Assembly: GCA_000091205.1 (NCBI GenBank)
Contig: AP006499.2
Origin: Cyanidioschyzon merolae
Lineage: Eukaryota
DNA: 64,000 bases
Direction: 5' to 3' (one strand)
Both the position numbers and the translations under genes were made by a program. The notes beneath the pieces are model-generated. The model did no database searches, had not been told where the DNA came from, and worked only from the letters and a program-made list of their open reading frames with translations. Shown here one piece after another: positions 24,319-64,000 of this stretch. How positions within the stretch are numbered: position 1 is the stretch's first letter; the number at the start of each line of letters is the position of its first letter.

Positions 24319-25259
24319 CTATGTTCACCACTTAAGTTGGCTGCAGGCGTGCAACCAGGAGATTGTACCTGCTTTTCACGGTTTGCTCGGGAGCATATAA
24401 CAGCGCGAATGCCGGAGCGAACAACGTTACGTCAGTGCAGCAAACCCGTTTCGCAACAATATCGTGTACATGAATATCCACCCGCAGACGTCTCTCAGCC
24501 TTTTCTTACAGGTTTCTGGTATCGGTTTCAGTTTCTCCATATACACCCCGACGCTGTGAGGCTGCCCAACAAAGTTAGCTTGCCGCAGCGCTGCGTGCCT
24601 CGTATTCAGCACAAGCATCTCCTGATATTGATACCAGCGTTGAGGTCTCGGTTCATGGACTCCATGCGTTTGTTGCCGCTGGTTGATCTCACCAATGATA
24701 GGAGACCACGAACTCGTGTACGCTGTGCCATTGGGTGCTCTGTCAGCTCTTCGTGCTGATTTGTCGACGAAATGCTCCGCTGGCCTCGCTCCAACTCAAC
24801 GTCCTAGGGTGTATATTCCAGCTCGTCCCTTAGATTTTTCGAAAATGAACGCACTTGTTTATAGCCTGAGATGACGACCTTCCCGCATCGAGCAGCACAT
24901 GCGGAATAAAGACCAAATGTGCCCCGGTTGGTCACCATGTGCTGAACGCTTCATCAATTCGCCCGGTGGAGCGGTCGTGACGATTCAGGACGCAAAACTC
25001 TCCTTCTATGGGGATGAAACACAGTTGAGAAGAAGGAATGAAACCAGCTCTACCCGTCGATAGAATTGGCAAGCGCTCGAACTGAAGCAGAACGGCTAAA
25101 TACCACTATGTCCAATAGAAGGACTTCACCAGGCGTTTGGGACAAGTCTTCAATGACTCGACAAAAAGAGGGCGCTGCTGCATGAGTGTTCTCTTCAGCG
25201 GAACTGAGGCAGCCAAATGAATCCACCGCAGCTAGAACAGATGATGATGTCGACGTTCT

Positions 25260-26338: not shown

Positions 26339-28225
26339 CTAACGATTCAGAGTGGCAGTGTTGACAGCAGGCACGCGCCGCTGACGCACAGCTCGAGGAT
26401 CGCTTCGATTCGAGACCACGGCGACAATACGTGACCATTTCAGCGCACCGAATGCGACTTCTCCGGCACTGGCGTGCAGCTCAACTAGGCGTCGTGCAAC
26501 GCGCATCTTAGCTTCCAGGACCTCGAGAGAAGCGTCCGTCGGGTCGCAGAGCCATTCCACAAAGTCCGCCATACTAGCCAACGCGACAACTCCGATTCTC
26601 GACAGACTTAGCGCAGCGAATACCGCCGCAGCAGCGAGCCGCTCTTCTTCCGAAGGATGCCGTGCACAGTCCAGGACAATGGGCAGTGCATTCGTGAACG
26701 CCTTGACGGCATCCGCATCCCTGATCGCATCAGTGAACAGATGCAGCACCCTTTGCTGCCGAAATTCGAGGTCGGATTCGGAGGCTCCGTACCCTGAGAC
26801 GGCTGCTGATGAAAGCGGCTCGTCGAGACCTGCCAGGAACACACTCAAAGCACGCAAGGAGGCCACTCGAATATCGCACACGCTCGCCGTATGAATGAAA
26901 CGAAGCGTTAGTTTCAAGGTGTCAACGTCCGCAAGCAGCACGTCCATGCCGCGTTCACAGAGCCCCAGAGCGCCTACCGCGGAGATCAGATGCACCAGCA
27001 GCGTCGTCCGACGAACTTGATCAAGTTGTACGGACCAGTGTGCTGTCTCAGTCTCGCCATCTACCACGTGAACCAAGAGAAAGCGCCCAAGAATCTCTAC
27101 GAGATTGGCGTCCATCCAAGCGTGGAAGGCGCAACGGCTGGACCCGGCACTGGTGCGCACGAACCTCAGAATCCCACACATCCAAATAAACCAGCGTTCC
27201 GCCAAGTCGCTCGAGGCAGGCTCGTCTGGCGCCAACAAATGGGCAAGGTGTTGGCGTAGCAGCACATCGAATACCGAAATTTGGTCGAGCAACTCGGCTG
27301 CTATTGCACTGCGTTGCATAAAAGCCCCAAGCACATCCAGCAAGTTCAAGCGGAGTAGCAAGTCCTCATCCAAACGAACAGGAGCTGCGATTTTGGCTAC
27401 AAGCACGGTTGGCAACAGCCGACGTGCGGCAATCTCTGCAACAGACGAGTAGTCGCAGATCTCAAGCAGCAAGCTCAAGGCTCGGATATGCGCAACCGCA
27501 CCCGCTGCACCCGAGAGCATCTCCTGTACGAGGATTTGCGCGCCTCGTGCTTCGCTGAAGAGCACAACTGCGCCGCGGAACGGCTTCAGCTGTACCAGGT
27601 TCTTCAGGATTTTTTCACAAAGTCCCGCAGCTTCGGTGGATGGATCATCACGGAAGCTCAGCAGCACCAGTGACAGGATATCGCTGGCGTGCTGTGCAGT
27701 TGTGCTGGGAGCGTTCACTTCTGGACCTGGCGCTTGTGCGGCCTCTATCTCCGGACGAAGCTCGTTCGTACTTTCAAAACGTTCGATAATGGTGTCTGCA
27801 ACTTGCTGACAAAACGCTTCAGGCAAGTCATTCCGTTCAAGAAGGAGACAAAGCAGACGAAGCGCAGCTGTGCGTACCAGCGGGTACCGGCTGCTCAGAC
27901 CGAGCTGGATGAGCTGGAGCACCTGCTCTATAGGTACGAGGTGACGCACTCGGGCACTTGTTGCAGAAAGCTTGACCAGTTTCTCCATTGTTTTCGTTAA
28001 TACCCGGATGGAATCAAATATGTTGTCAGAAGGTACCGCGTCGCTGTCTGAAGCCTCGAGCGACGCCCGCACCGCGTACTCCTCCAGTGTCCAGCCCAGC
28101 AGCGGTAACGGCAAACGCTCCAGCAAGTCCAGTGCCGCACACTCCGACAGTGCTCCAGCGTCTACATATTCCCTCACTGTATCCAATACTTTATCGGGAG
28201 TCCAGTCATTGTGGTGAGCGTTCAT
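26339..28225 (-). CDS. Armadillo/HEAT-type helical repeat protein (hypothetical)
   Basis: 628-aa ATG-initiated ORF (cat at 28223-28225). Leu-rich amphipathic repeats throughout, with no catalytic motifs. Confidence 0.45.
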   Translation of the reverse strand: MNAHHNDWTPDKVLDTVREYVDAGALSECAALDLLERLPLPLLGWTLEEYAVRASLEASDSDAVPSDNIFDSIRVLTKTMEKLVKLSATSARVRHLVPIEQVLQLIQLGLSSRYPLVRTAALRLLCLLLERNDLPEAFCQQVADTIIERFESTNELRPEIEAAQAPGPEVNAPSTTAQHASDILSLVLLSFRDDPSTEAAGLCEKILKNLVQLKPFRGAVVLFSEARGAQILVQEMLSGAAGAVAHIRALSLLLEICDYSSVAEIAARRLLPTVLVAKIAAPVRLDEDLLLRLNLLDVLGAFMQRSAIAAELLDQISVFDVLLRQHLAHLLAPDEPASSDLAERWFIWMCGILRFVRTSAGSSRCAFHAWMDANLVEILGRFLLVHVVDGETETAHWSVQLDQVRRTTLLVHLISAVGALGLCERGMDVLLADVDTLKLTLRFIHTASVCDIRVASLRALSVFLAGLDEPLSSAAVSGYGASESDLEFRQQRVLHLFTDAIRDADAVKAFTNALPIVLDCARHPSEEERLAAAAVFAALSLSRIGVVALASMADFVEWLCDPTDASLEVLEAKMRVARRLVELHASAGEVAFGALKWSRIVAVVSNRSDPRAVRQRRVPAVNTATLNR

Positions 28226-28471
28226 TCAGCAACAGGTTATCACGCTTTGAGATAGACATATCCAGAAGCAATCTCCTGATCGGCGGCGGGGCGCAGGTCA
28301 GCCGCTGCGCGTGCACGCGCACCTGGCAGATCCGGCGGGCACGAGACACGACGCTCTGGTCGCTCCTGAGGGGAACAGTGATCCTGATCATTGGCGTGCT
28401 ATTCTACTGTAAAAGTTGTATTCGCGTTGAGGTCGTAGCAAAGTATAGGTTTTCTGTTCCATCCTATTCCG

Positions 28472-30876
28472 ACCCTCAATTGAGTATATTCAAGTGTTTT
28501 TTCGAAGTATATAACAGAAGCGTTCAAAGAGCGTTCGTTTTCAAAAAAAATTAAAAGGAAAGTCATGGAAATGGAAGTGGAGGATCCCGGAGGGCCGATA
28601 TCGCCGGCTGTCGGAAAAGAAGGATAAACATGGCGGAGCAAAGAGGAACAGGAATTGATGAAGAATCAAAAGGGGGCGAGGTTCTAGGTCGAAGGCGGCA
28701 AGAAAGGCAACTGTACAACGAGATAGTGGTGAAAGCCTGTGTTCTTAAATATATCAAGGATCCGTAGAAGGAAAAGTTGCGGGACGCCATCAAAAACCGT
28801 CTCGAGTCGTACTCCATGAGTATTATAAAGGCTTCTTCAGGACCGACGCATTTGGTGAGGGAGATGTATCGCTACGTGACGAACATGGAAACGGTCGGGA
28901 TTCCGGACGAGTTTTTCGATAACACATTTTTTCGTCACTTGATGCTTGGCACAGGGGAAGAGCGGAAGGATATAAGAGCCAGTGCATGCCCTTCACGAAC
29001 AACATCCCTTTTAGAGGTTCGAGGGTAATCGAAACAAGGGGGCAGGGGTATTTACGACTATGGGGCGATGAAGTACATCACGAACCTGAAGAACCATTTG
29101 ACAACGAACCTCGAACGTTTCATGATACGCGCCGTGTTTGCACTCTACCGGGGCCTGTCTCGCAAAGGAATATGGGCGATTATCAATGGCATCATGAACG
29201 ATCGAAACTATGGAAATGAGGTCGAATTCGTTGACAAGAAGGAGTCAAACCAGAGCACGAATGAGGATTCTGTAATCCGTGCGGCTATTAAAGAGCATCG
29301 TGCGGTCTTGGGGTTGGCGAATCCAGCAGAAAAGATATCAGCGTTGAAAAAAGATAGGGAAAGATACGATCGCCTCATTCTGCGCTATTCTGTGTTTCTG
29401 GACCGAGAGCTCGAACGCAAAGCGGAGATGAAGCTGAGTGAAGAGACAAAGGAAGAGTGGGAGAGACGGAAGGCTTTCCGAATGGGTAAGCGCTTCGACG
29501 TGGTTCCAATGTGCAAGATCAAGTCACATTTTATGACTATCGACTCCGGCCTCTTTTACGGCATCATGAAGGAGATCTGTCCGGAGTTCGATGTAAGGAA
29601 GACAGAGTTCCCCGGTGAAAACCGTGAGACGTACTGGAAGAATATCTTCGATTTCAAACGTCTCAAAGTCAGCAAACAAAAGGTATTCACTGGGTTGATC
29701 GAAACCGATGGAGTAGCCACGTGTGTACAATATCGGCGCTTGAAGAAAAATCGTCCAGTTCCGCCCTCGGCTTCGCCCGTTACGAAGCATGAAGATGAGA
29801 AGGAGTCGGATCCAGCGATGCAGGAGGTAGAGGATAACGACCTAGTCGTTGACGCGGAGAAGCATGAAGATGAGACGGATGCGGATCCTGCGATGCAGAA
29901 AGTGCAGGGTAACGACTTTGTCGTTGGCGCGGATCCCGGAAACACAATATCATCACCATCGCAGTACCCAAGCATGCGAAAGATGATATCAACGGCAAAT
30001 TATTCCAGAGCGACATGCGTCGGTTGAGGTCCTCTAGAGCAAGATAATATCGAAAAAAGTCGGGAATCATGAATGCAAGAAAGAAAATCGAGACGTAGAA
30101 TGCAGGAATGAAAGGGCACCTGGAAGCTTTGAGCGAGGTGACGAGCCGCAGAGCGGACTTTCAAGCTTTTCCGGAATTCATGGAAGTTCGTGTTGCTCAT
30201 TGGGAGGCGCTGTGGAAAGAACATACAAAGCCTCGGTGAGCTCGATTGCGTATGAACCTATACGGTGGGAGGCAGCGGGCGTTTGCCAACTTTTTCAATC
30301 ATTTGAGCGCCCTCTAAGAGATTGAAAGTCAGAGGCCCGTAGTAGCTTATGCAACAGGGCGCTGAGCGCCCAAAAAAGTACGTACACCAGCTCCAACGAC
30401 GAGAGCGTACAAAGAGTGTGCAAGGCGTTACGTAACGATACCGATAGATGAGTTCCGAACAGCGTATGTGCATTATGAACTGGGGTGCGTACTTCAGACG
30501 GTCGAAATGGAAAAATGCCAACGGAGTCCTGAAGACATAGCAAAGTACGGGCCGCTGACCGAAGAGCAAATGGGAAGGAGAGCGAAAGTTCGAGGACCAC
30601 TTTCATCAGTAAGTACAACCAATGATGGCAAGACGCGTATGGAGTTTGTGAATCGTGACTTTAACGCCGCTATCAATATACGGAAGTGCGCGGTGCTGGA
30701 GAGAAGGCGTCCACAGCTGACACGAGAGCGCTTTGTTGGACAATTACTCAAAGCCGAACTATATGAGAAACAGTTGGAAGCAGTAGTAGGTGGCCGTTCC
30801 AAAAAGACCGGGAGACTTCTGCGCATCAGTTGTAGACGTTTCGTCTAGGGCGGGTTTCTCGCCACTACTGTGCACC
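28472..30876 (+). mobile_element. Fanzor/TnpB-like (IS200/IS605 OMEGA-family) element, copy 1, heavily decayed
   Basis: Homologous end-to-end to 60867-63189 at roughly 80 % nt identity. It encodes the Fanzor N-terminal region, RuvC-I (VVGADPG), a zinc-finger-like segment (YVHYELGCVLQTVEMEKC) and RuvC-III (MEFVNRDFNAAINIRKCAV). Left-end motif: GTGTTTTTTCGAAGTATATAACAGAAGCGTTC. Right-end block: GCCACTACTGTGCAC. Confidence 0.65.
28565..30848 (+). pseudogene. Fanzor (eukaryotic TnpB-like RNA-guided nuclease) pseudogene, copy 1
   Basis: The reading frame is split into pieces at 28565-, 28777-29028, 29068-30027 and 30468-30848. Relative to copy 2 it has a roughly 110-bp internal deletion, a 69-nt tandem duplication ([12 protein letters not shown]...), a 1-nt deletion just after GADPG, an in-frame TAG (ctctagag vs ctcgagag) and a TGA in the last segment. 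Confidence 0.6.
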
Positions 30877-31202
30877 GTTGGCAGGAACGCTTTTCTTTGG
30901 AAAGGCGTTTGATGGTGTACACGGATGCGTGCATGCGTGCGTGCATGCGTGCGCAACATCCCGCTCACAGTGAATACGCACAAAGCATTGTCGTTGTTCG
31001 CCGTGCAGTGCCGAGAATGCTGCACCGCTGCAACAGCAGTGCGCGTCTCTTGGCACTGCTAAGCGCGCTTCGCCTGCATGTCGCCCATACACCGTCGTTA
31101 CGGACCCAGCGACTGCATCATGGGCGCTGCATTAGTGGCAAACCATCGGTGTCTGGTTCACCGCCAGGAAAGCAGAGTCACCCGCGCCTGCATGGGTGGC
31201 GT

Positions 31203-44494: not shown

Positions 44495-45035
44495 ACGAAG
44501 GAAAAGCTATGGAAGAATTTGAGGTGTTCTCGGTGAAGCTGGTGCTTTCGGATGACCAATGCATGAGTGTGTGTGTGTTTGTTTTCGTAGAATGGTGCTC
44601 GTATGAGGGCAAGAGCAGCACCATGAACACGTTCCAGATGCAAGGCACGAACTCGGATCGCATGGACAATGCATCTGTATACTGCAGCATGATCATCTCG
44701 AAGTGGTAATCGAACGATGTTGACACGGTTGCAAACGCTAGAACGGCAACATCTCCTTTGCTTTTCTCGACGCACGTGCAGCGCCATGATGCCCATTGCG
44801 TATCTGACACCGCTTCCTCTGCTGCTTACTGTGCATCGTTTTCCGCACCATATGGACGACGCCGCTCGTAAGGCATTCGCGAGCGCCCGCGTAACTTGGA
44901 CGAGGGAATGCGTCCACCAAGCGCAAGCGCTCCCTACGACTCTGTTTAAATGCCGTTGCTTGGAATAACCGCACATGCCGACGAGGAATCGCGGCACTAG
45001 AGGCCCGTGTCGAAGCACGGTCTCGGTTTGCGTGC

Positions 45036-45985
45036 TCAATAGAAACGCAACAAACGTGCCTTTCTTTTTTTGTGCTGGCTTTCCAGAACGCGATCAGGTC
45101 TGTGCCGCTGTTCCCGGGAAAGCGCACATCCCATCTTTTCCTGGTATGAGAAACAGGAGTTTCGTGGTGATGCGAAACGCAACAAACGTGCCTTTCTTTT
45201 TTTGTGCTGGCTTTCCAGAACGCGATCAGGTCTGTGCCGCTGTTCCCGGGAAAGCACACATCCCATCTTTTCCTGGTATGAGAAACAAGAGTTTCGTGGT
45301 GATGCGAAACGCAACAAACGTGCCTTTCTTTTTTTGTGCTGGCTTTCCAGAACGCGATCAGGTCTGTGCCGCTGTTCCCGGGAAAGCACACATCCCATCT
45401 TTTCCTGGTATGAGAAACAGGAGTTTCGTGGTGATGCGAAACGCAACGAACATGCCTTTCTTTTTTTGTGCTGGCTTTCCAGAACGCGATCAGGTCTGTG
45501 CCGCTGTGCCCGGGAAAGCGCACATCCCATCGTTTCCTGGTATGAGAAACAGGAGTTTCGTGGTGATGCGAAACGCAACAAACATGCCTTTCTTTTTTCG
45601 CACTGGCTTTCCAGAACGCGATCAGGTCTGTGCCGCTGTTCCCGGGAAAGCACACATCCCATCGTTTCCTGGTATGAGAAACAGGAGTTTCGTGGTGATG
45701 CGAAACGCAACAAACATGCCTTTCTTTTTTTTGTGCTGGCTTTCCAGAACGCGATCAGGTCTGTGCAGCTGTTCCCGGGAAAGCGCACATCCCATCGTTT
45801 CCTGGTATGAGAAACAGGAGTTTCGTGGTGATGCGAAACGCAACAAACGTGCCTTTCTTTTTTCGCACTGGCTTTCCAGAACGCGATCAGGTCTGTGCCG
45901 CTGTTCCCGGGAAAGCACACATCCCATCTTTTCCTGGTATGAGAAACAGGAGTTTCGTGGTGATGCGAAACGCAACGGCCGCAAT
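45036..45985. repeat. Tandem array, 132-bp unit x about 7.2 copies
   Basis: The CCCGGG landmark recurs at 45113, 45245, 45377, 45509, 45641, 45774 and 45906. Units are about 90-95 % identical and each contains the palindrome TTCCCGGGAA. It is intergenic, between uL4 and the 987-aa gene. Confidence 0.9.
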
Positions 45986-47660
45986 ACGGCCTCTACCTCC
46001 ACCCGAACCAGATGAGAACGGGGTATTGCATTGCTCGCGCTGCTCCTGCCTTGAGATTTCTTACCGCCCGCTTCGTGGATATACAGCCTCTACATTTGCA
46101 ATCCATGACAAAGCACTTTCGTATACATATGGAGTTGTAGGAGTCTCGGTCATGTTTTCGGAGTGCTTGTGTCGATCCGTTGCCGCTCGGGATTCGTCGT
46201 GCCATCGGATTGGAGCGGATTCACGACGACCTCGAACACGACTTTGTAAAATCGTCGATGACGTCATCAGAGTCGGACGTGAAAAAATCCACGCTTTTCG
46301 ATTCCCTCAGTGCTCTATACGCAAACGACACACGCTTCAACTCGATCGTTCTGATTCAGGGCAATTCGTGGGCACGGCAATTCGTTCTGATGAATCGATG
46401 AGGAAAGAAAACTCGATGTCGTGCTTTGACGACTGGGTCACGAGCATATACCGAATGTTCATTGGGCTTCTCACGTCAATTCATCGATATCGTTCGAAAG
46501 AGAAATCCTCTTCTCTTTGTGGTCAACGATGAAGCGGCATTCTACAGCAGCAGCGTGAGACGTCTCAGAAGCTGCTCCCCGAGGCTTCCGTATCCTCTGT
46601 TTGCCTGGGTACGGGTCTTGGACGCAAACCAGAGTCACTACAGCGATCGATAGCTTTGGAGCGTGCGTCACCGCCTGGAACGACGAGCGTGCAGATGGGA
46701 CGAAATGTCTCGACTAGTTCCGCAACCTGGGTTTTCCATCGGCTGCCTGTTTCATCGATGAGCTAAATCGCTTTCTCCAATTCCGCAATCGAAACGAATC
46801 GCGCGCACTTGCATATGCAGCAGACAGCAAAGTCGCGGCGAGCATCGCTCAGAAGAAGCCCGTGATCTTCGGGTACAGCAGCGAGCGCGGAAACAGAACA
46901 GGGCATCCATCGGTGCCGTCAGCAACTTCCAAGGACGCGTGTGTCGAGCCGTGAAGCACGGGGTCACGCGCCTCAAGTCGGTGCTCGGAGAACAAAGTGT
47001 TGCGGGTGTGTATAGGAGCATCTGAGCGGCATCAAGCGTTACCGCTGCGAAGCGCGCTCAGAGACTCTAGACATAGATGATGAAATGAACAAGCGACATG
47101 CAGACTGCGACTTTTGCCTGTATATGTATCTTATCGTGAGCAACAACCGATAACTGCGAGCATGGGGCTTTCACGTTGCCATCAACGTCCTTCCACTGCT
47201 GGCAATGTAGCTGGAGGAACGGGAAAGACTTTCCTGTATTACGCCGGAGATAAAAGAACGGAAAGAAGCAAATCGACGAAAAACCGCGGAAAACCCTGTT
47301 CTAATTCCAGTCGCAGGAGACCCGAAACATAGTCCGTACGCCCAAGTTAGTCGACTTGACCCGTTCCATTTTATGCGAATATGGGTGTACACCAGCCTGA
47401 GCGCCCCAGAACAACAACAACAACAACGGCTTTTCTGCTGCGCCGATTTTCCAAAAGCATCCGGACTCTGTGGAACGATTTTTCGTGGAAACATGCGGAT
47501 ACCAGCATGAGCGAACATGCATGGACGTGCTGCTCACGGACTTGTACACACTGTGCTCGTCCTCGCTTCCCAGGATTCGCGTCACGATGCTTCCGCCTGT
47601 CACTGGCTGCGTAGTGCCCCACGTTACGCCCTGACGCTTACACGTCGCAGCTGCAGCAGG

Positions 47661-52679: not shown

Positions 52680-54210
52680 CAAGGTTGTTGCGAAACGCTC
52701 ACTGGCCGGGCGCTTCCTGTTCAGGCGGTTCAATGGTGAGCGGGGCAGTCGTCGCCAGGGCAGTGGCGATAGATTTCGAACCCCAATGCAAACGCATAGG
52801 GCGTGTATCTCAGTGAAATGCTATAGAAACCTGTATATTCCAAAGAAAAATCTGCGAAGCGTCGGAGTGATAAAGTGCATGCCGGGGACAAGCGCTGATC
52901 CGACGTACCCGTGGCATGCTCGGAATCGAGTCACGACTTGGTGATACCTTCCTGCGCACATCAGCGCACTTTTGCTTCACGGACGTACGCGAAGTACTGA
53001 TGAACGATGGAACAACATATGTTTCTACCGATTGCGCAGGAAAAATCGTAAACGATATATATATGGCGCTGCTATATTCATGGATTGCTGGACGGATCGT
53101 ACCAGTGCCTCGTTCGCGCGAGAATCGCATGACTTTACACCTCGCGACTGATTTTTACATCGCCAGACTTTCTGTTTTCAGCACCATGTCCATAAAGAGT
53201 ACTACACGAGTACCTCGCGAGCCCGCTCGACACAAGGCTGTTGGACGCTCCCGATGCACGAGACATTTCCGGATGTTGGTTGAGGCATACAGGTCTCCGT
53301 GCAGAATGCCTCTGCCTATGTTTGCCTGCGGAATCGCATCATTGCAAGACGCTCATTTTCGATTGCCTCGCCAGTTGGCGTTCGATCAGCTTACCGTTCA
53401 CCATCTCGTGCATGCGACTATTCACTACGCTCTTCTTCTGTGCACGGTTCAGCGTACAGCCATGCTTGTGCAGCTTGCGTATCGTCCTGAATATATCGAT
53501 GGAAATTGTCCGGCATGGATTGGTGCACTCTTTGGACGCTCTCGTTGAATGAGCAGGTGCGCATCCAGTTTGACAAGTGCTGTATTGGATGCACGGAACG
53601 TTCAGGATAAGCATGCGAAGAAGCGTGCTTCACTCATCGAAGGACTTTCGAATACCTGATTTGAACAAGTAAGGCCGTTTCATCCAATTACCATGAAACA
53701 TATCAGTTCCTTTCACCTCTTTTTCCAACCCACAAGATGCATTCCTTTTGTTGAACACATCCCAGATAAACACCCAAAAAAGTCCTAATGGTCTAGGCGT
53801 TCTAGAATTCACCACCCTAGTTATACCGACAATCACCATTTGCGTGTCCGTGCATCTTCGACGAGTCGCTCGCGGTATCGACCGCCCCATCCGCACCGCA
53901 GTTGCGCTGCAGCGTGCAACAGCGCATGCGATCCTGCATCAGCAGCTAGCCGCGAACCTGCATGGCACGCGGCATCCACGCCGCCGAGTCTCCAAAGCGT
54001 ACCAGGAACACGAAATCCCAATCCCGAAACCCGAACGGTCTGGTACGAAGAAAGCATCAATGCAGCTCCGCATGTCCATACCCATCGCACACATGAAGAA
54101 GCACACCAGGTACTGGAATGTAGCCTCTAGCAGAGCATCCCGGTATTGGGTGATCGTTCCCGCCCACGTTATCCCGGGATCTCGCTTCAACGATGATTGT
54201 ACAAGCGAAT

Positions 54211-54515
54211 CGCCCTCTTTAGAGCCCCTAAAGGTGGACGCTGTACAGATCGTCCTCTCCAGCGCACATGAAGGCTGCCGCTGTACAGATCGCCCTCTTC
54301 AGAGCCCCTAAAGGTGGACGCTGTACAGATCGTCCTCTCCAGCGCACATGAAGGCTGCCGCTGTACAGATCGCCCTCTTCAGAGCCCCTAAAGGTGGACG
54401 CTGTACAGATCGTCCTCTCCAGCGCACATGAAGGCTGCCGCTGTATAGATCGTCCTCTTCAGAGCCCCTAAAGGTGGACGCTGTACAGATCGTCCTCTCC
54501 AGCGCACATGAAGGC
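54211..54515. repeat. Tandem repeat, 80-bp unit (two diverged 40-bp halves) x about 3.8 copies
   Basis: AGAGCCCCTAAAGGTGGACG recurs at 54221, 54301, 54381 and 54461. Each unit is CTGTACAGATCGTCCTCTCCAGCGCACATGAAGGCTGCCG + CTGTACAGATCGCCCTCTTCAGAGCCCCTAAAGGTGGACG. It lies about 100 bp upstream of the Pol-X ORF. Coordinates here may be off by 1. Confidence 0.85.
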
Positions 54516-54626
54516 GGACATCGACGCGCATGCACCGAGGCGATCTCTCGCCAAATATCTCTGAGGGAAAACGAGAGGGCTCTCTACTGTACCTCAGGTG
54601 CGCGTGCCGCTACCAAGTCCGATTGA

Positions 54627-58861: not shown

Positions 58862-60866
58862 GCTCTACCAAAGCCGCAGCCTCCACCAATAACGTACAGA
58901 ATGAAAACGTAGTCCCAGAAACGTTCGAGCGCCTCTGGAACCCCGACTTGTCCACAAGGCGCTGCTCGTGCTCGTGGCGTGCACCCCAGTGGTGCAGCGT
59001 CCGGGCACCACGCAGGCAACGCTACGTGTCCATGCACGCATCGATCGCACGTATCGATCGATTGATCGATCGATGCGCAGCGGCGGCTAGAGGCGCTCAG
59101 CGGCCGCCGCTGCCGCCTGTGCATCCGGTCCGGTGCCGGGGTGAGCACGACGCGCCTGCTCGAGCGCGAAGCGGCAGCGGCTCTTCGCATGCAGTGCCTG
59201 TTCGTTGTAGCGAGGTTTGTTCTGGGTCGGCGTTGGGTCATTCGACGAAATGCTCTCCGACGCACGGGCGCTGGTCGTTGGCGATACATGAATACGAGCT
59301 GGATGGAGAAAGGAATAGCGGCATCGGGCTGAGCGCTGGGAAGCGGCGCGTCGATGCGTGCGTGCGCTGCTGCGCTCTTTTCCCTGATCTGCGCGGGCGA
59401 TGTGTGTCTCTGGCGTTTCCGCATCGATGCAGCAGGGATCCGAATAGTGATCTGAGCGTCGCTTTCTCGGTTATCCTATGACTGCGAAAAAGTGTCGAGC
59501 GCGGAATTTGCGGTCGACTGCAGCATCGACGGAGCGGATACGACGCCCGCTCCCTGGCGACGTCGATTTGGGGCGCTGGCAACCGCGGTGGCCAGCGGGG
59601 CTGTTCACACCCAGCGGTATGCGAGCGCTGAGGTGTCGCGCAGAACGGTTGACCGTCTCCATGGCGACGCTACTGAGACACCATGCGCAATAGCCGGTGT
59701 GACATGAAGTGCCGGATGCGATCACGCGGCTTTGCTGGACGATTTCGGATGCTTCTCGTAATCGAGCGGCATGCTTTCCGAATCACTGAGAAAGCGCGCT
59801 TCCGGGGCTTCGAACACGCATCGCGCTCCGCTGATGCATCTGGAGAACCCGGCACTGTGGTCAGCTCGAGGTCGGAAAATGTGCTGCTCGGCTTCGCCGG
59901 CTGGGAAACGGAATCGCATCGACACGAAGTGTGAAGAAGACGCTGTCTGCGTTCTCTCGTTGCAAGACAGCTGAGCGTTGTGTTCAGCGGTGCCCTGGTG
60001 CCCAGCAGCGCAACCGCGTCCATCTATGCGACGTTTCACCAATGACAGCCACGTGCATGAGCACTCGCACCTGACACATCGTTAACGTTCTGAAAACAGC
60101 ACCGATGCGACCGCCCCCGTCTGCTTCTGGCCAAGGAGCGCTCCCGACGTACAGTTAAGGAGGTCGCGAACGGTGTGTGCGGCACGCGCCGGTTGCGTCA
60201 CACCGGTACGTTCCGAGCGAGCGGTTCCCCCACACGCAGCCGCAGAACGCTAAACCATCCTCTGGACCCCAAAACGCTGGTGCAAAGAGCCGCCCCCAGC
60301 CAAGTACCCTGTCTATGTGGAAGGCATTTCGCACTGGTGCATGCGCCTCGCCCACCTGTGCATCGCGTGGGCGCGCGGCGAGCATTGCGGCGAGCGCAAA
60401 TGCAGGATACCGGGAGATAATTGCAACATGGGCGACGCCCAGACGCAGCTTAACTGCCCCTAGTCCCAGAATACAATGCGTTGCGGACGATTTGCGCAGC
60501 TCACGTAGCAGTACCTGCCACTGCAGAGTCGAACGGGTGACGAGCCTGGCAGACTGCTCCGGCTCGCGGGACCTTTCGCGTGGAAGGAAAACTTTCTAGA
60601 ATACGAAAAGCTTTTCCCCTTTCAAAGTATATCACAGAAGGGGAAAGCAATACATATACATGCCGGTGAATCCAGAGTCTATGTGCGTTAATCTAAATAG
60701 CGCGCGCTAGATACGCGCATCACGAGATCTGGCTGGCACGAGATACGATGCGCATGTCGCCGTTGAAGAGAAAAGCGATTCCGATCAGAAGCGTGTTCTA
60801 CCGGAACAAGTTGGATTTCCGTTGGAGTTTTACAAAAGAGCAGTTTTTTCATTTCATTTGGTCTTC

Positions 60867-63189
60867 AACCCTCAAACAAGTCTAGTAAAGTGTTTTTTCG
60901 CAGTATATGACAGAAGCGTTCGAAGAGCGTTGTTTTTCAAAAAAACTAAAAAATGAAAGCTATGAAAAAGCAAGTCGACGATCCTGGAGGCTCAGTGTGG
61001 CTGGCTGCCAGAAAAAAAAAACAATAAACATTACCGAGTCCAGAAGAAAAGGAAGAGAAAAAGAACCGAAAGGGGGAGGCTCTACGTCGAAGGCCGCAAG
61101 AAAGACGACAGTACGACGAGATGGTGGTGAAAACCTTTCTTCTTGGACATACCAAGGATCCCTGCAGGGAAAAGTTGCGAGACGCTGTCGAAAAACGTGT
61201 CGACTCTTACTTCAGGAATATTGTGAAGGCGTCGTCAGGACTGATGCATTTGGCGAGGGAGATGTATCGCGACGTGACGCACATGGAAACGGTCAAGATT
61301 CCGGACAAGTTCTTCGACAAGACCTTTATTCGACACCTCATGCTTGGTACAGAGGAAGCGCGGAGGGAAAATGAGCGGGTGCACGTCCTCCACGGAAAAC
61401 ACTCCTTTTACAGCTTTAATGGTACTCGATACAAGGGTGACCGGGATATGTACGACTATGGGGCGATGAAGTACCTCACGAACCTGAAGAACCATCTGAT
61501 CGTGAACCTCGAACGTTTCATGATACGCGCCGTAGTTGCACTCTACCCGGACCTGTCTCGCCAAGGAATATGGGCGATTATCAATGGCATCACGAAAGAT
61601 CGCAGGCGTGAAGACGAGGTCGAATTTGTCGAGAAGAAGGAGTCAAACGAGAGCACGAATGAGGATTCTGTAATCCGTGCGGCTATGAAAGAGCATCGTG
61701 CGGTACTGGGGTTGGCGAATTCAGCAGAAAAGATATCAGCGTTGAAAAAAGATGAGGGAAGATCCTATCGCCTCATTCTGGGATATTTTGTGTTCCTGGA
61801 CCGAGAACTGGGACGCGAGGCAGAGATGAAACTGGGTGAGGAAAAAATGAAGCGTGGGAGAGACGGAAGGCTTTCCTAATGGGGAAGCGCTTCAACGGCG
61901 TTCCAATGTGCAACATCAGTTCACATTTTGTGACTATCGACTCCAGAATCCTTTACGGCATCATGTAGGAGATCAGTCCGGAGTTCAGTGTCAGCAGGGA
62001 GGAGTTCTCCGCTGAGAAGCGGGAGACGCACTGGAAGAACATCTTCAATTTCAAACTTCTCAAAGTCAGCAAACAAAAGGTATTCACTGGAATGATCGAA
62101 ACCGATGGAGTAGCCACGTGTGTACACTATCGGCGCTTGAAGGCAGATCGTCCAGTTCTGTGTTCAATATTGTCCGTAACGAAGCATGAAGATGAGAAGG
62201 AGGCGTATCCTGCGACGCAGAAAGTGCAGAATAACGACTTTGTCGTTGGCGCGGACCCCGGAACCACAAATATCGCAACCATCGCAGCACCCAAGCGTGC
62301 GGAAGATGGTACTGACGGCAACCTACGTCGGAAAGACGTGCGTCTTTTGAGGCTCTCGAGAGCAAGATACTATCGAGAATCGGGAATCATGAATGCAAGG
62401 AAGAAAATTGAGGCATGGAATGCAGGAATGAAAGAGCACCTGGAAGCCTTGAGTGAGATGACGAGCCGCGGAGCGGACTTTGAAGCTTTTCGGAAATTCA
62501 TGGAAGTTCGTGTTGCTCATTGGGATGCGCTGTGGGAAGAGTATACAAATCCCCGGTGCGCTCGTCTGCGAATGAATCTGTATTGTGGGAAGCGGCGCGC
62601 GTTCGCGAATTTTTTAATGAGTGCCTTGAAGGAGAATGAAAGTCAGGGCTCGTGGTAGCGTACGGAGCAGGGCGCCGGAGGATACAAAAAGGGTGTACAC
62701 CAGCTCCAACGGCAAGAACGTACATGGAGTGTGCACGGCGTTTTGTTACAATACCTGTAGATGAGTTTCGAACATCGTATACACACCATGAGCTGGGTTG
62801 TACACTTCAGAGAGTGGAGATGGAAAAGTGCCACCGGAGCCCTGAAGATATAAAAAAGTATGGACGGCTGACGGAAGAGCAAATGGAAAGGACGTCGAAA
62901 GTTCGTGGACTCCTTGCATTAGTAAGTACAACCAATGATGGAAAGAAGCGTATGGAGTTTGTGAATCGTGACTTTGATGCCGCTATCAATATCAGGAAAT
63001 GTGCGGTGATGGAGCATAGACCTCCAGAGTGGACAAGAGTGAATTTTGTTGGACAACCTCTCAAAGTCGAACTATATGAGAAAAAGTTGGAAGCAGTATT
63101 CGGTAGACTGTTCAAAAAAACTGGGAGGCATCTGCACGTCAGTTGGCGACGTCTCGTCCAAGGCGCGGTTGCCGCCACTACTGTACACG
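60867..63189 (+). mobile_element. Fanzor/TnpB-like (IS200/IS605 OMEGA-family) element, copy 2, less decayed
   Basis: Same left-end motif (GTGTTTTTTCGCAGTATATGACAGAAGCGTTC) and right-end block (GCCACTACTGTACAC) as copy 1. It encodes RuvC-I VVGADPGTTNIATIA, RuvC-II-region AFANFLMSALKE, the zinc-finger-like FRTSYTHHELGCTLQRVEMEKC, and RuvC-III MEFVNRDFDAAINIRKCAV. Confidence 0.7.
60953..63170 (+). pseudogene. Fanzor (eukaryotic TnpB-like) gene, copy 2, disrupted
   Basis: Coding potential of about 740 aa is spread over three frames: 60953/61121-61879, 61879-62658 and 62652-63170. There is a 1-nt deletion near 61850 (relative to copy 1), an in-frame TAG at about 61966 (AAG in copy 1), and a frame change at 62642-62670 that coincides with a GT...AG 29-nt segment. 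Copy 1's stop codon (TAG) is CAA here, so the ORF runs on to 63395. Confidence 0.6.
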
Positions 63190-63241
63190 CCCGACGTCGT
63201 TCGACTTTCGAGCGGCGTTTGGCCGGTGTCACCTCTAATCC

Positions 63242-64000
63242 ATGTCAGGAGTGGAACTCCCAGAAGCAGAGACGAGGTCAGTTCTTTCCGATGCGATTCA
63301 AGTGGCGGTTCGTGTTCGTCCTATTCTTCCGAAAGAAGCAGAGACTAGGGGTGCGGCTGAGACCTGGCGCGCTGTACCTCACGCAGGTCAAGTGATCCGC
63401 GTTGGCCGGCTTCCCACGGGTGCCGGAGGCACGACGACCTGCCCGACTGTCTTCTCGTATGATTTCGTGTTCGGTAAGGAGTCCACCAACGTAGAAGTCT
63501 ACGAAAAGGTGGCGAGGCCTCTGGTTGAAAGCGCTCTAGTTGGTTACAATGGCACCGTCTTTGCCTATGGGCAGACGTCTTCCGGGAAAACGCACACCAT
63601 GTGGGGCAGCGAGGCGGATCCCGGTGTCATGCGTCGGGCTGTACGTGACCTCTTCGAGCTTGCGCGCCGAACGCCTCAGCGAGAGTTCCTCATTCGGGTG
63701 TCTTACCTGGAGATCTACAACGAGACTATCAGAGATCTGCTGCATTCGAACCCAGCCGTGACCAATGTCCGGGTTCTTGAGGATAGCGATGGTCGCATCT
63801 GCACCGATGCGCGAGAGGAAATCGTTGTCACTGCTGAGCAAGTCTGTGAGTTGCTCAAGAATGGCGAGGCGAAGCGTATGACCGGAGCAACGGACATGAA
63901 TGAGCGAAGTTCTCGCTCGCACACGATCCTGACACTAGTGATTGAGAGCAGGGAGCGCGCTGCGGAAGACTCAACCTCTGGGGATGCCGAAGACTCGTCA
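63242..64000 (+). CDS. Kinesin motor domain protein (5' part; continues beyond the window)
   Basis: ATG at 63242. IQVAVRVRP..., the P-loop GYNGTVFAYGQTSSGKTHTMWG, and switch-I NERSSRSHTILTL are all present. There is no stop before the window end. Confidence 0.85.
   Translation, partial: MSGVELPEAETRSVLSDAIQVAVRVRPILPKEAETRGAAETWRAVPHAGQVIRVGRLPTGAGGTTTCPTVFSYDFVFGKESTNVEVYEKVARPLVESALVGYNGTVFAYGQTSSGKTHTMWGSEADPGVMRRAVRDLFELARRTPQREFLIRVSYLEIYNETIRDLLHSNPAVTNVRVLEDSDGRICTDAREEIVVTAEQVCELLKNGEAKRMTGATDMNERSSRSHTILTLVIESRERAAEDSTSGDAEDSS

Follow-up and report, generated by a model that had tools for sequence, protein, structure and literature searches.

The 64,000-nucleotide stretch analysed here (the window, with positions counted from its first letter) derives from contig AP006499.2 of the Cyanidioschyzon merolae assembly GCA_000091205.1 and carries two copies of a CMe-1A element, whose single gene encodes the TnpB-type protein Fanzor1 and whose 3' end is the subject of this work. 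The copies are direct repeats of ~2.5 kb, located at 28315-30875 and 60713-63188 and 77% identical by blastn. Judged by the extent of the repeat and by the reading frames, copy 1 spans 28303-30920 on the plus strand, without a 5' TE-N2-like module and with a right end uncertain within 30909-30920; copy 2 spans 60420-63232 on the same strand and includes a 5'-truncated TE-N2-like module at ~60420-60712. Both are pseudogenes, copy 1 with at least one frameshift and at least five in-frame stops, and copy 2 with two frameshifts, one in-frame stop and a lost stop codon. Neither provides an intact, expressible Fanzor1 open reading frame (ORF), and being dead genes they could at most supply RNA in trans. 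Downstream of the ORF both copies retain a structured tail, which probably represents the scaffold of a guide RNA.

The reading frames of copy 2, when stitched together, encode a protein of ~680 amino acids with the motifs VVGADPG, IPVDEFRT and NRDFNAAINI. Both window copies display VVGADPG, IP(V/I)DEFRT and NRDF(N/D)AAINI, with VVAYGAG where TnpB has glutamate. An indexed homologue search with the stitched protein matched 51 metagenome proteins, and a profile derived from seven of these matches retrieved 2783 cluster representatives in an exhaustive search. Searches of the PDB with the single protein or with a shallow profile gave no match; a 44-sequence family profile was required, and it matched only PpFz1 (PDB code 9cf0; 7.8e-21), SpuFz1 (PDB code 8gkh; 4.2e-14) and GtFz1 (PDB code 9cer; 1.6e-9). 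Searches with the ORF pieces and with full relatives in a Pfam copy lacking PF26935/DUF8286 returned no match, and the Pfam family Cas12f1-like_TNB was matched by 5 of the 44 family members. The AlphaFold2 model of a close intact relative, P0052 (predicted local distance difference test score, pLDDT, 85.8; predicted TM-score, pTM, 0.83), has SpuFz, GtFz and PpFz as its top Foldseek matches (E ~1e-16, TM 0.63/0.73), the next being Cas12 at E > 1e-4. Residues D421, E592 and D658 are invariant in family alignment A2, the glutamate being in the rearranged place, VDEFRT[ST]; their catalytic roles were assigned via hidden Markov model alignment to PpFz and SpuFz. By sequence, by a predicted TnpB/Cas12-like fold whose REC is enlarged as in Fanzor1, and by catalytic motifs the window protein is a Fanzor1 of the TnpB type, in agreement with the original prediction, made from the DNA letters alone, of a TnpB/Fanzor-type protein in both copies.

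At their 3' ends the two copies share a block reading GGCGGGTTTCTCGCCACTACTGTGCAC in copy 1 (30849-30875) and GGCGCGGTTGCCGCCACTACTGTACAC in copy 2 (63162-63188, from sequence and MAFFT alignment), both on the plus strand and identical at 22 of 27 bases. The original prediction, in which the block lies 1-3 nt from these positions, took it for the end of an omega or Fanzor RNA (fRNA) scaffold and for the guide boundary. A chance match can be dismissed, since the repeat to which the block belongs occurs in at least 429 metagenome stretches. The copy-1 block is made up of a small hairpin, GGCGGG-UUU-CUCGCC (30849-30863), the linker ACUACUGU (30864-30871) and the first bases of a terminal hairpin, and it is immediately preceded by the plus-strand TAG at 30846-30848, so that it does lie 3' of the ORF stop, as had been claimed. 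This TAG is the consensus stop codon of the Fanzor1 ORF, the commonest stop position among copies being 15 nt before the anchor GCCACTACTGT. At the equivalent position copy 2 has CAA (63159-63161), and its frame continues to 63395.

The blastn alignment of copy 1 with copy 2 terminates at 30875/63188, immediately after the CAC of the block, and the sequences beyond had been described as unrelated. This holds by plain identity only: 25-28 nt past CAC both copies have GGCGTTTG, followed by GGTGT(A)CAC (all within 25-45 nt in the MAFFT alignment), and each copy folds into the same long hairpin. For a wider comparison, copies were sampled as 80 metagenome loci from a scan with the C-terminal peptide (at least 429 stretches overall), which yielded 62 distinct tails. 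Anchored on GCCACTACTGT, these tails are alignable for 34 nt past CAC to GGCGTT, plus 7-12 subfamily-specific nucleotides, with the consensus ...AGACGTTTTGTCTAG GGCG-N7-CGCC ACTACTGTACAC nGYnGG CGTCGTTCGA CTT TCGAACGGCGTT. Information content is ~1.5 bits per column up to GGCGTT, falls to 0.3-0.5 bits over the next 7-9 positions and is zero thereafter. The weak zone after GGCGTT reads (G/A)ATGGTGC, TGGTGTG or TGTTTCCAGGGG according to subfamily, and the further flanks of copies that share one of these sequences are unrelated.

With GGCGTT at 30904-30909 in copy 1 and 63214-63219 in copy 2, family-wide conservation ends at 30909 and 63219, 61-74 nt from the stop codon, and from the subfamily alignments the extended element end is placed at about 30917-30920 and 63228-63232. 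The position originally proposed for the end, immediately after CAC (30876/63189), lies in the 5' strand of the terminal hairpin, and homology continues past it in the 62 distinct copies, the outcome that the original prediction itself had named as refuting. The presumed guides, CGTTGGCAGGAACGC... in copy 1 and GCCCGACGTCGTTCG... in copy 2, are both element sequence that forms this conserved hairpin. Locus-specific sequence is present directly after GGCGTT plus 7-12 nt and not at the earlier point. The prediction is thus right in kind, since the block is part of a structured 3' terminus like those from which scaffolds derive in characterised Fanzor1 systems, but wrong in place by 34-45 nt. Beyond the re-mapped end, the microsatellite noted in the flank of copy 1 was found at 30926-30953 as TGCGTGCATGCG x2.3 on the plus strand. 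Two tails in the sample display additional repeats: at the copy-2 locus of another strain (L055:655-812) 49 nt of the tail (CCGCCACTACTGT...GGCGTTT) are duplicated in tandem, and in L008 (1710-1730) a partial second GCCACTACTCTG comes directly after the element end. The tail therefore seems prone to local duplication. One locus (L059:830-3146) is the sole copy among the 80 with a long uninterrupted ORF (772 amino acids); its consensus stop is replaced by CAA as in copy 2, and the ORF continues through all of the tail, ending 84 nt beyond the anchor.

The tail consists, from the stop codon onwards, of a small GGCG...CGCC hairpin, a near-invariant single-stranded ACUACUGU and a 19-22-bp hairpin rich in G·U pairs, whose 5' strand runs from GT(G/A)CAC and whose 3' strand extends to GGCGUU plus ~(G/U)AUGGUG; unrelated flank begins only after this hairpin. 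The GT(G/A)CAC of the shared block opens the 5' strand and pairs with GGUGU(A)C, and both copies have a long hairpin of this kind across the boundary first proposed. In copy 1 the terminal hairpin extends over 30870-30920 (plus strand; GUGCACCGUU / internal loop / AACGCUUUUC-UUUG-GAAAGGCGUU / UGAUGGUGUAC) and has a minimum free energy of -22 to -27 kcal/mol (z = -5.1 against dinucleotide shuffles). In copy 2 it extends over 63183-63232 (plus strand; GUACACGCC / GACGUCGUUCGA-CUU-UCGAGCGGCGUU / GGC..GUGU.AC) at -26 kcal/mol (z = -4.0 against the same type of shuffles). The mean z over 61 copies is only -1.9, many of them being decayed. Two apical variants alternate on a common base, and both retain a 10-bp inner stem: variant A (UUCGA-CUU-UCGAA), present in copy 2, occurs in 26 distinct sampled copies, and variant B (UUUUUC-UUUU-GAAAGA), present in copy 1, in 12. 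The sharp break in pairwise homology after CAC is real as an alignment stop, but it arises because the window copies carry different apical variants and not because the element ends there.

Conservation of the hairpin at the level of base pairing was assessed in two alignments. In a MAFFT alignment of the 26 variant-A copies, 78% of the cells are paired, against 33-50% when the partners are slid, and eight pairs are changed on both sides (covariation 0.124 vs 0.099, reached by 2 of 500 shuffles). A covariance model seeded with variant-A copies, and thus without copy 1, aligned copy 1 over 30847-30925 with 44 bits (E = 4e-8); copy 2, a member of the seed, scored 83.5 bits, and nothing else in the window was found. 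In the alignment of 58 distinct copies fitted to this model, 80% of the cells are paired, 14 of 23 pairs display compensatory changes, and the covariation score of 0.152 (vs 0.102) is reached by none of 500 shuffles. The small hairpin (helix 1) is paired in 88-94% and is almost invariant, hence uninformative for covariation. RNAalifold on the raw 61-copy MAFFT alignment gave no consensus structure, decayed copies and A/B variants being misaligned there, and it was replaced by per-copy folds, the clean type-A alignment and the covariance model. At four stem positions G·U is more frequent than any other pair, and folding energies favour the sense over the antisense strand (-16.9 vs -12.5 kcal/mol, mean gap 4.5, Wilcoxon p = 1e-7). 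This bias and the G·U pairs suggest an RNA with the sequence of the ORF strand, not a symmetric DNA signal. A search of the window for stand-alone "ghost" scaffolds found none, and the extra hits in 81 loci belong to neighbouring copies. Taken together, these data leave little doubt that the tail is the structured 3' end of the CMe-1A Fanzor1 element, ending as re-mapped here.

In IS200/IS605 TnpB systems of the ISDra2 type, the scaffold shares sequence with the 3' part of the ORF and with the right-end hairpin, and the flank supplies the guide. A comparable overlap may exist in CMe-1A, where the scaffold possibly reaches ~70 nt back into the ORF: in well-preserved copies a long-range helix is predicted between GCAGUAGUGGGUGGCCGG in the ORF and the GCCGCCACUACUGU block, its candidate 5' strand in copy 1 being GCAGUAGUAGGUGGCCG at 30782-30799 (plus strand), with a predicted partner at 30853-30871. 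The two systems differ in that the host here is eukaryotic, no TnpA is present, the protein has ~700 rather than ~400 amino acids, and the glutamate of CMe-1A occupies the VDEFRT position, with VVAYGAG at the canonical site.

The closest characterised counterpart is SpuFz1 of Spizellomyces punctatus (Saito et al. 2023, PMC10432273; PDB code 8GKH), a single-ORF element of ~2.1 kb in which a 75-nt omega-RNA scaffold extends from the stop codon to the right end and is followed by a variable guide of 14-15 nt. In other Fanzors the fRNA is likewise located 3' of the ORF and extends past the right end (PMC10530073). The window element resembles SpuFz1 in protein family, by profile and fold, in being a single-ORF element of ~2-3 kb without transposase, and in the conserved, structured stretch of ~70-75 nt between stop codon and right end that is followed by variable flank. 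At the ends the two differ, with inverted repeats of 30 nt and a left-end CA/CATA motif in SpuFz1 but neither terminal inverted repeats (TIRs) nor a motif resembling a target-adjacent motif (TAM) found here, and no equivalent of the RNA-only "ghost" loci of the SpuFz1 system was found in the window or the 81 loci. Between the SpuFz1 RNA and the CMe-1A tail there is no detectable sequence similarity, and RNA expression and cleavage have been shown for SpuFz1, the CMe-1A tail being known here from its sequence.

Between the ORF and the right end the tail is non-coding and conserved, its terminal hairpin shows compensatory changes, and variable sequence follows. From the parallel with SpuFz1 in stop-to-end distance, structure and unique flank, the tail is taken as a scaffold, and serving as the omega/fRNA scaffold of CMe-1A is its most likely function, a reading that appears probable rather than secure. 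Transcription of the tail, protein binding, guide use and a role in homing are likewise inferred. Under the proposed mechanism a transcript would cover the ~70-75-nt tail and continue beyond it, the 15-20 bases at the start of the flank (beginning at ~30910-30921 in copy 1 and 63220-63233 in copy 2) would act as guide, and an intact Fanzor1 from another copy would use this guide to cut matching DNA beside a TAM. If the tail is an omega RNA, the guide of copy 1 would start between 30910 and 30921 (zone 30910-30940, plus strand), where conservation is at background and the flank is unique, and that of copy 2 between 63220 and 63233 (zone 63220-63252, plus strand), where the flank runs into the ATG of a kinesin-like ORF at 63242. 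These candidate guide flanks have no second match in the window or in the sampled loci except at orthologous loci.

Several observations weigh against the scaffold reading. Nearly all 80 sampled copies, like both window copies, are pseudogenes. Covariation was counted over related copies, and the 58-copy alignment was itself fitted to the model. Pairing of the outer hairpin is seen in only ~60% of copies, which leaves the exact end uncertain by ~10 nt. The long-range helix, which has the standing of a hypothesis from predicted folds, is 80% paired over 64 copies, but both of its strands are conserved and its covariation is not significant. An Rfam search matched no family. At the DNA level, no target site duplications (TSDs) could be recognised in five full-length copies, where same-element matches of 4-7 nt compare with 3-10 nt in cross-element controls; no empty site was found, no locus in the window having both flanks contiguous; and no TAM-like motif is shared upstream of the clearest left boundary, the left ends being heterogeneous.

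Other explanations of the tail were weighed against the same data. If the element ended at ...CTGT(G/A)CAC (30875/63188) with the guide immediately following, the stop of the pairwise blastn alignment of the window copies at exactly this point would be accounted for, but 62 further distinct copies are alignable for at least 34 nt beyond it, the covariance model aligns copy 1 through 30925 and the supposed guides make up a conserved hairpin, so that such an end is hardly credible. Neither is it likely that the hairpin and a GC-rich palindrome near the left boundary of the core are DNA signals for HUH-type single-strand transposition, of IS200/IS605 or Helitron/Helitron2 character, without any guide role. 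The placement of the hairpin at the extreme 3' end and the lack of TIRs and of clear TSDs are in keeping with that proposal, as are the documented Helitron2 elements that carry Fanzor1 and have a hairpin at either end (PMC3627910, PMC10530073). The Chlamydomonas examples (CRe-1/2/3, described in the same two papers) share with the window element the Fanzor1 passenger, the 3' terminal hairpin and non-autonomous copies, but the latter, whose ends read ATTTTTTTCGATGAC... and ...GGCGTT(GATGGTG), has no asymmetric terminal inverted repeats, no T/TC start, no CTRR 3' end and no RepHel partner. In addition, the 80 loci around copies all lack a Rep/Hel or TnpA ORF, and the prevalence of G·U at four positions and the sense bias fit RNA better than duplex-derived DNA. 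The DNA-signal and scaffold roles need not exclude each other, since the right-end hairpin of IS200/IS605 elements lies within the omega RNA.

A slightly smaller probability attaches to the tail being an ordinary element of the 3' untranslated region, concerned with 3'-end formation or stability and devoid of guide function. Its location directly after the stop codon and its strand-specific, RNA-level character would suit such an element, but the characterised Fanzor1 and TnpB systems all have the scaffold at this location (PMC10432273, PMC10530073), and the stop-less subfamily (copy 2 and L059) reads its ORF through the whole tail with the structure retained. Starting from the preferred scaffold reading, a further conjecture is that decayed copies may still be transcribed into "ghost-like" guides that read the flank and are used in trans by the few intact Fanzor1 proteins. 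It is prompted by decayed copies that keep the covarying hairpin and often sit at gene starts, and is considered improbable, more so than either the DNA-signal or the untranslated-region explanation. If true, the minimal genome of C. merolae would contain a scattered set of RNA guides directed at host sequence close to promoters, and these guides might have a function in regulation or genome maintenance that goes beyond selfish homing.

CMe-1A was described from C. merolae as a family of ~150 copies, ~3 kb long and ~80% identical to their consensus, without TIRs and with TSDs undetermined, whose 5' 635 bp are common to a separate element, TE-N2_CMe (Bao & Jurka 2013, PMC3627910). The element in the window is CMe-1A: all described features were matched, the comparison with the consensus being by description only. 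The two are alike in host, in the single Fanzor1 ORF, in the length of ~3 kb, in copies ~77-85% identical, in the lack of TIRs with TSDs undetermined, and in a 5' module of ~640-700 bp that also occurs alone (equivalent to TE-N2_CMe). Some copies here differ in carrying other 5' modules and copy 1 in carrying none, and nothing contradicts membership. The description of CMe-1A predates omega RNAs and contains no account of a scaffold or of the 3' hairpin in its two forms, nor was any description of RNA from the C. merolae CMe-1A family found in the searchable literature.

Upstream, the 5' module of ~640-700 nt is sharply delimited (ATTTTTTTCGATGAC...), and it is also found solitary in either orientation. 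It is non-coding, stands in front of many Fanzor copies and, in its solitary form, next to others, is probably TE-N2_CMe, and was seen in the window at 60386-60650 and in the sampled loci at L076:326-1064, L070:285-942 (minus strand) and L016:325-969 (minus strand). In other copies this core follows at least two further 5' modules of unrelated sequence, giving at least three module types overall, and the junction of module and core is a GC palindrome (TCGCGCTC GGT GAGCGCACC). Comparison of left with right ends revealed no TIRs beyond chance, and no TnpA (Y1 or serine recombinase) or further family ORF was identified within the copies or their 5' modules. Retrotransposition resembling that of long interspersed nuclear elements, suggested by the 3' hairpin, by 5' ends that vary and by flanks with microsatellites, was not adopted as an explanation: no reverse transcriptase partner was seen, microsatellite-like flanks number only ~4 of 37, and the copies differ at the 5' end by discrete modules, not by graded truncations.

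With the present analysis the putative guide-RNA end of CMe-1A is given a concrete anatomy, for which no earlier account was found in the searchable literature. This red-alga Fanzor1 family numbers ~150 copies, and its host has the smallest genome among the well-studied photosynthetic eukaryotes. Newly specified are the proposed scaffold limits, the 19-22-bp G·U-rich hairpin with two interchangeable apical modules, and the corrected candidate guide starts. The known picture of Fanzor function is unchanged, the result being a corrected annotation and not a new type of system. As C. merolae is genetically tractable, the scaffold reading is directly testable.

Variation among copies was observed at two further places. 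In another strain, the locus orthologous to copy 2 (L067) is 97.6% identical, and divergence between the two is 12.4% over 60713-61099 of the window, against 1.4-2% elsewhere in the element and flanks, an excess that looks like gene conversion from another copy. The scaffold region has 0 differences in 77 nt between the strains, which is not significant against a background of ~1.5-2%. Just before the RuvC-I motif, at 29784-29947 and 62181-62269, lies an in-frame 75-nt tandem repeat (KHEDEKE..DPA.Q.V.DND.VVDA) with two units in copy 1, one in copy 2 and ~4 in P0001. A metagenome contig (L015) switches exactly at this repeat from a copy-1-like sequence (96.5%) to another variant (79%), which suggests either an assembly chimera or recombination.

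In addition to the two copies, tblastn revealed two strongly decayed relics of the Fanzor C-terminus (RuvC-III region), both on the minus strand, at 24484-24824 and 53227-53566, giving four Fanzor remnants in the 64-kb window; neither relic has a detectable tail or scaffold. Both full insertions are tight against gene starts (63232-63244 and 28225-28303). The tail of copy 2 ends 10 nt upstream of the ATG of the kinesin-like ORF (63242), and the left end of copy 1 is ~80-90 nt from the ATG at 28225 of a CMQ418C/CMM108C-like gene on the minus strand. The 628-amino-acid ORF of this gene (26339-28225, minus strand) falls in a 90%-identity cluster with CYME_CMQ418C and CYME_CMM108C of C. merolae 10D, which are located on different chromosomes, and the region thus belongs to a recent duplication. 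This cluster also assigns the window, independently of its record, to C. merolae or a very close strain. The label "preprotein translocase subunit Sss1" that some JGI records give to the 628-residue protein is apparently an annotation error. Two tandem arrays without relation to the element are located at 44896-46120 (132-nt unit, eight copies) and 54169-54555 (40-nt unit, at least seven copies).

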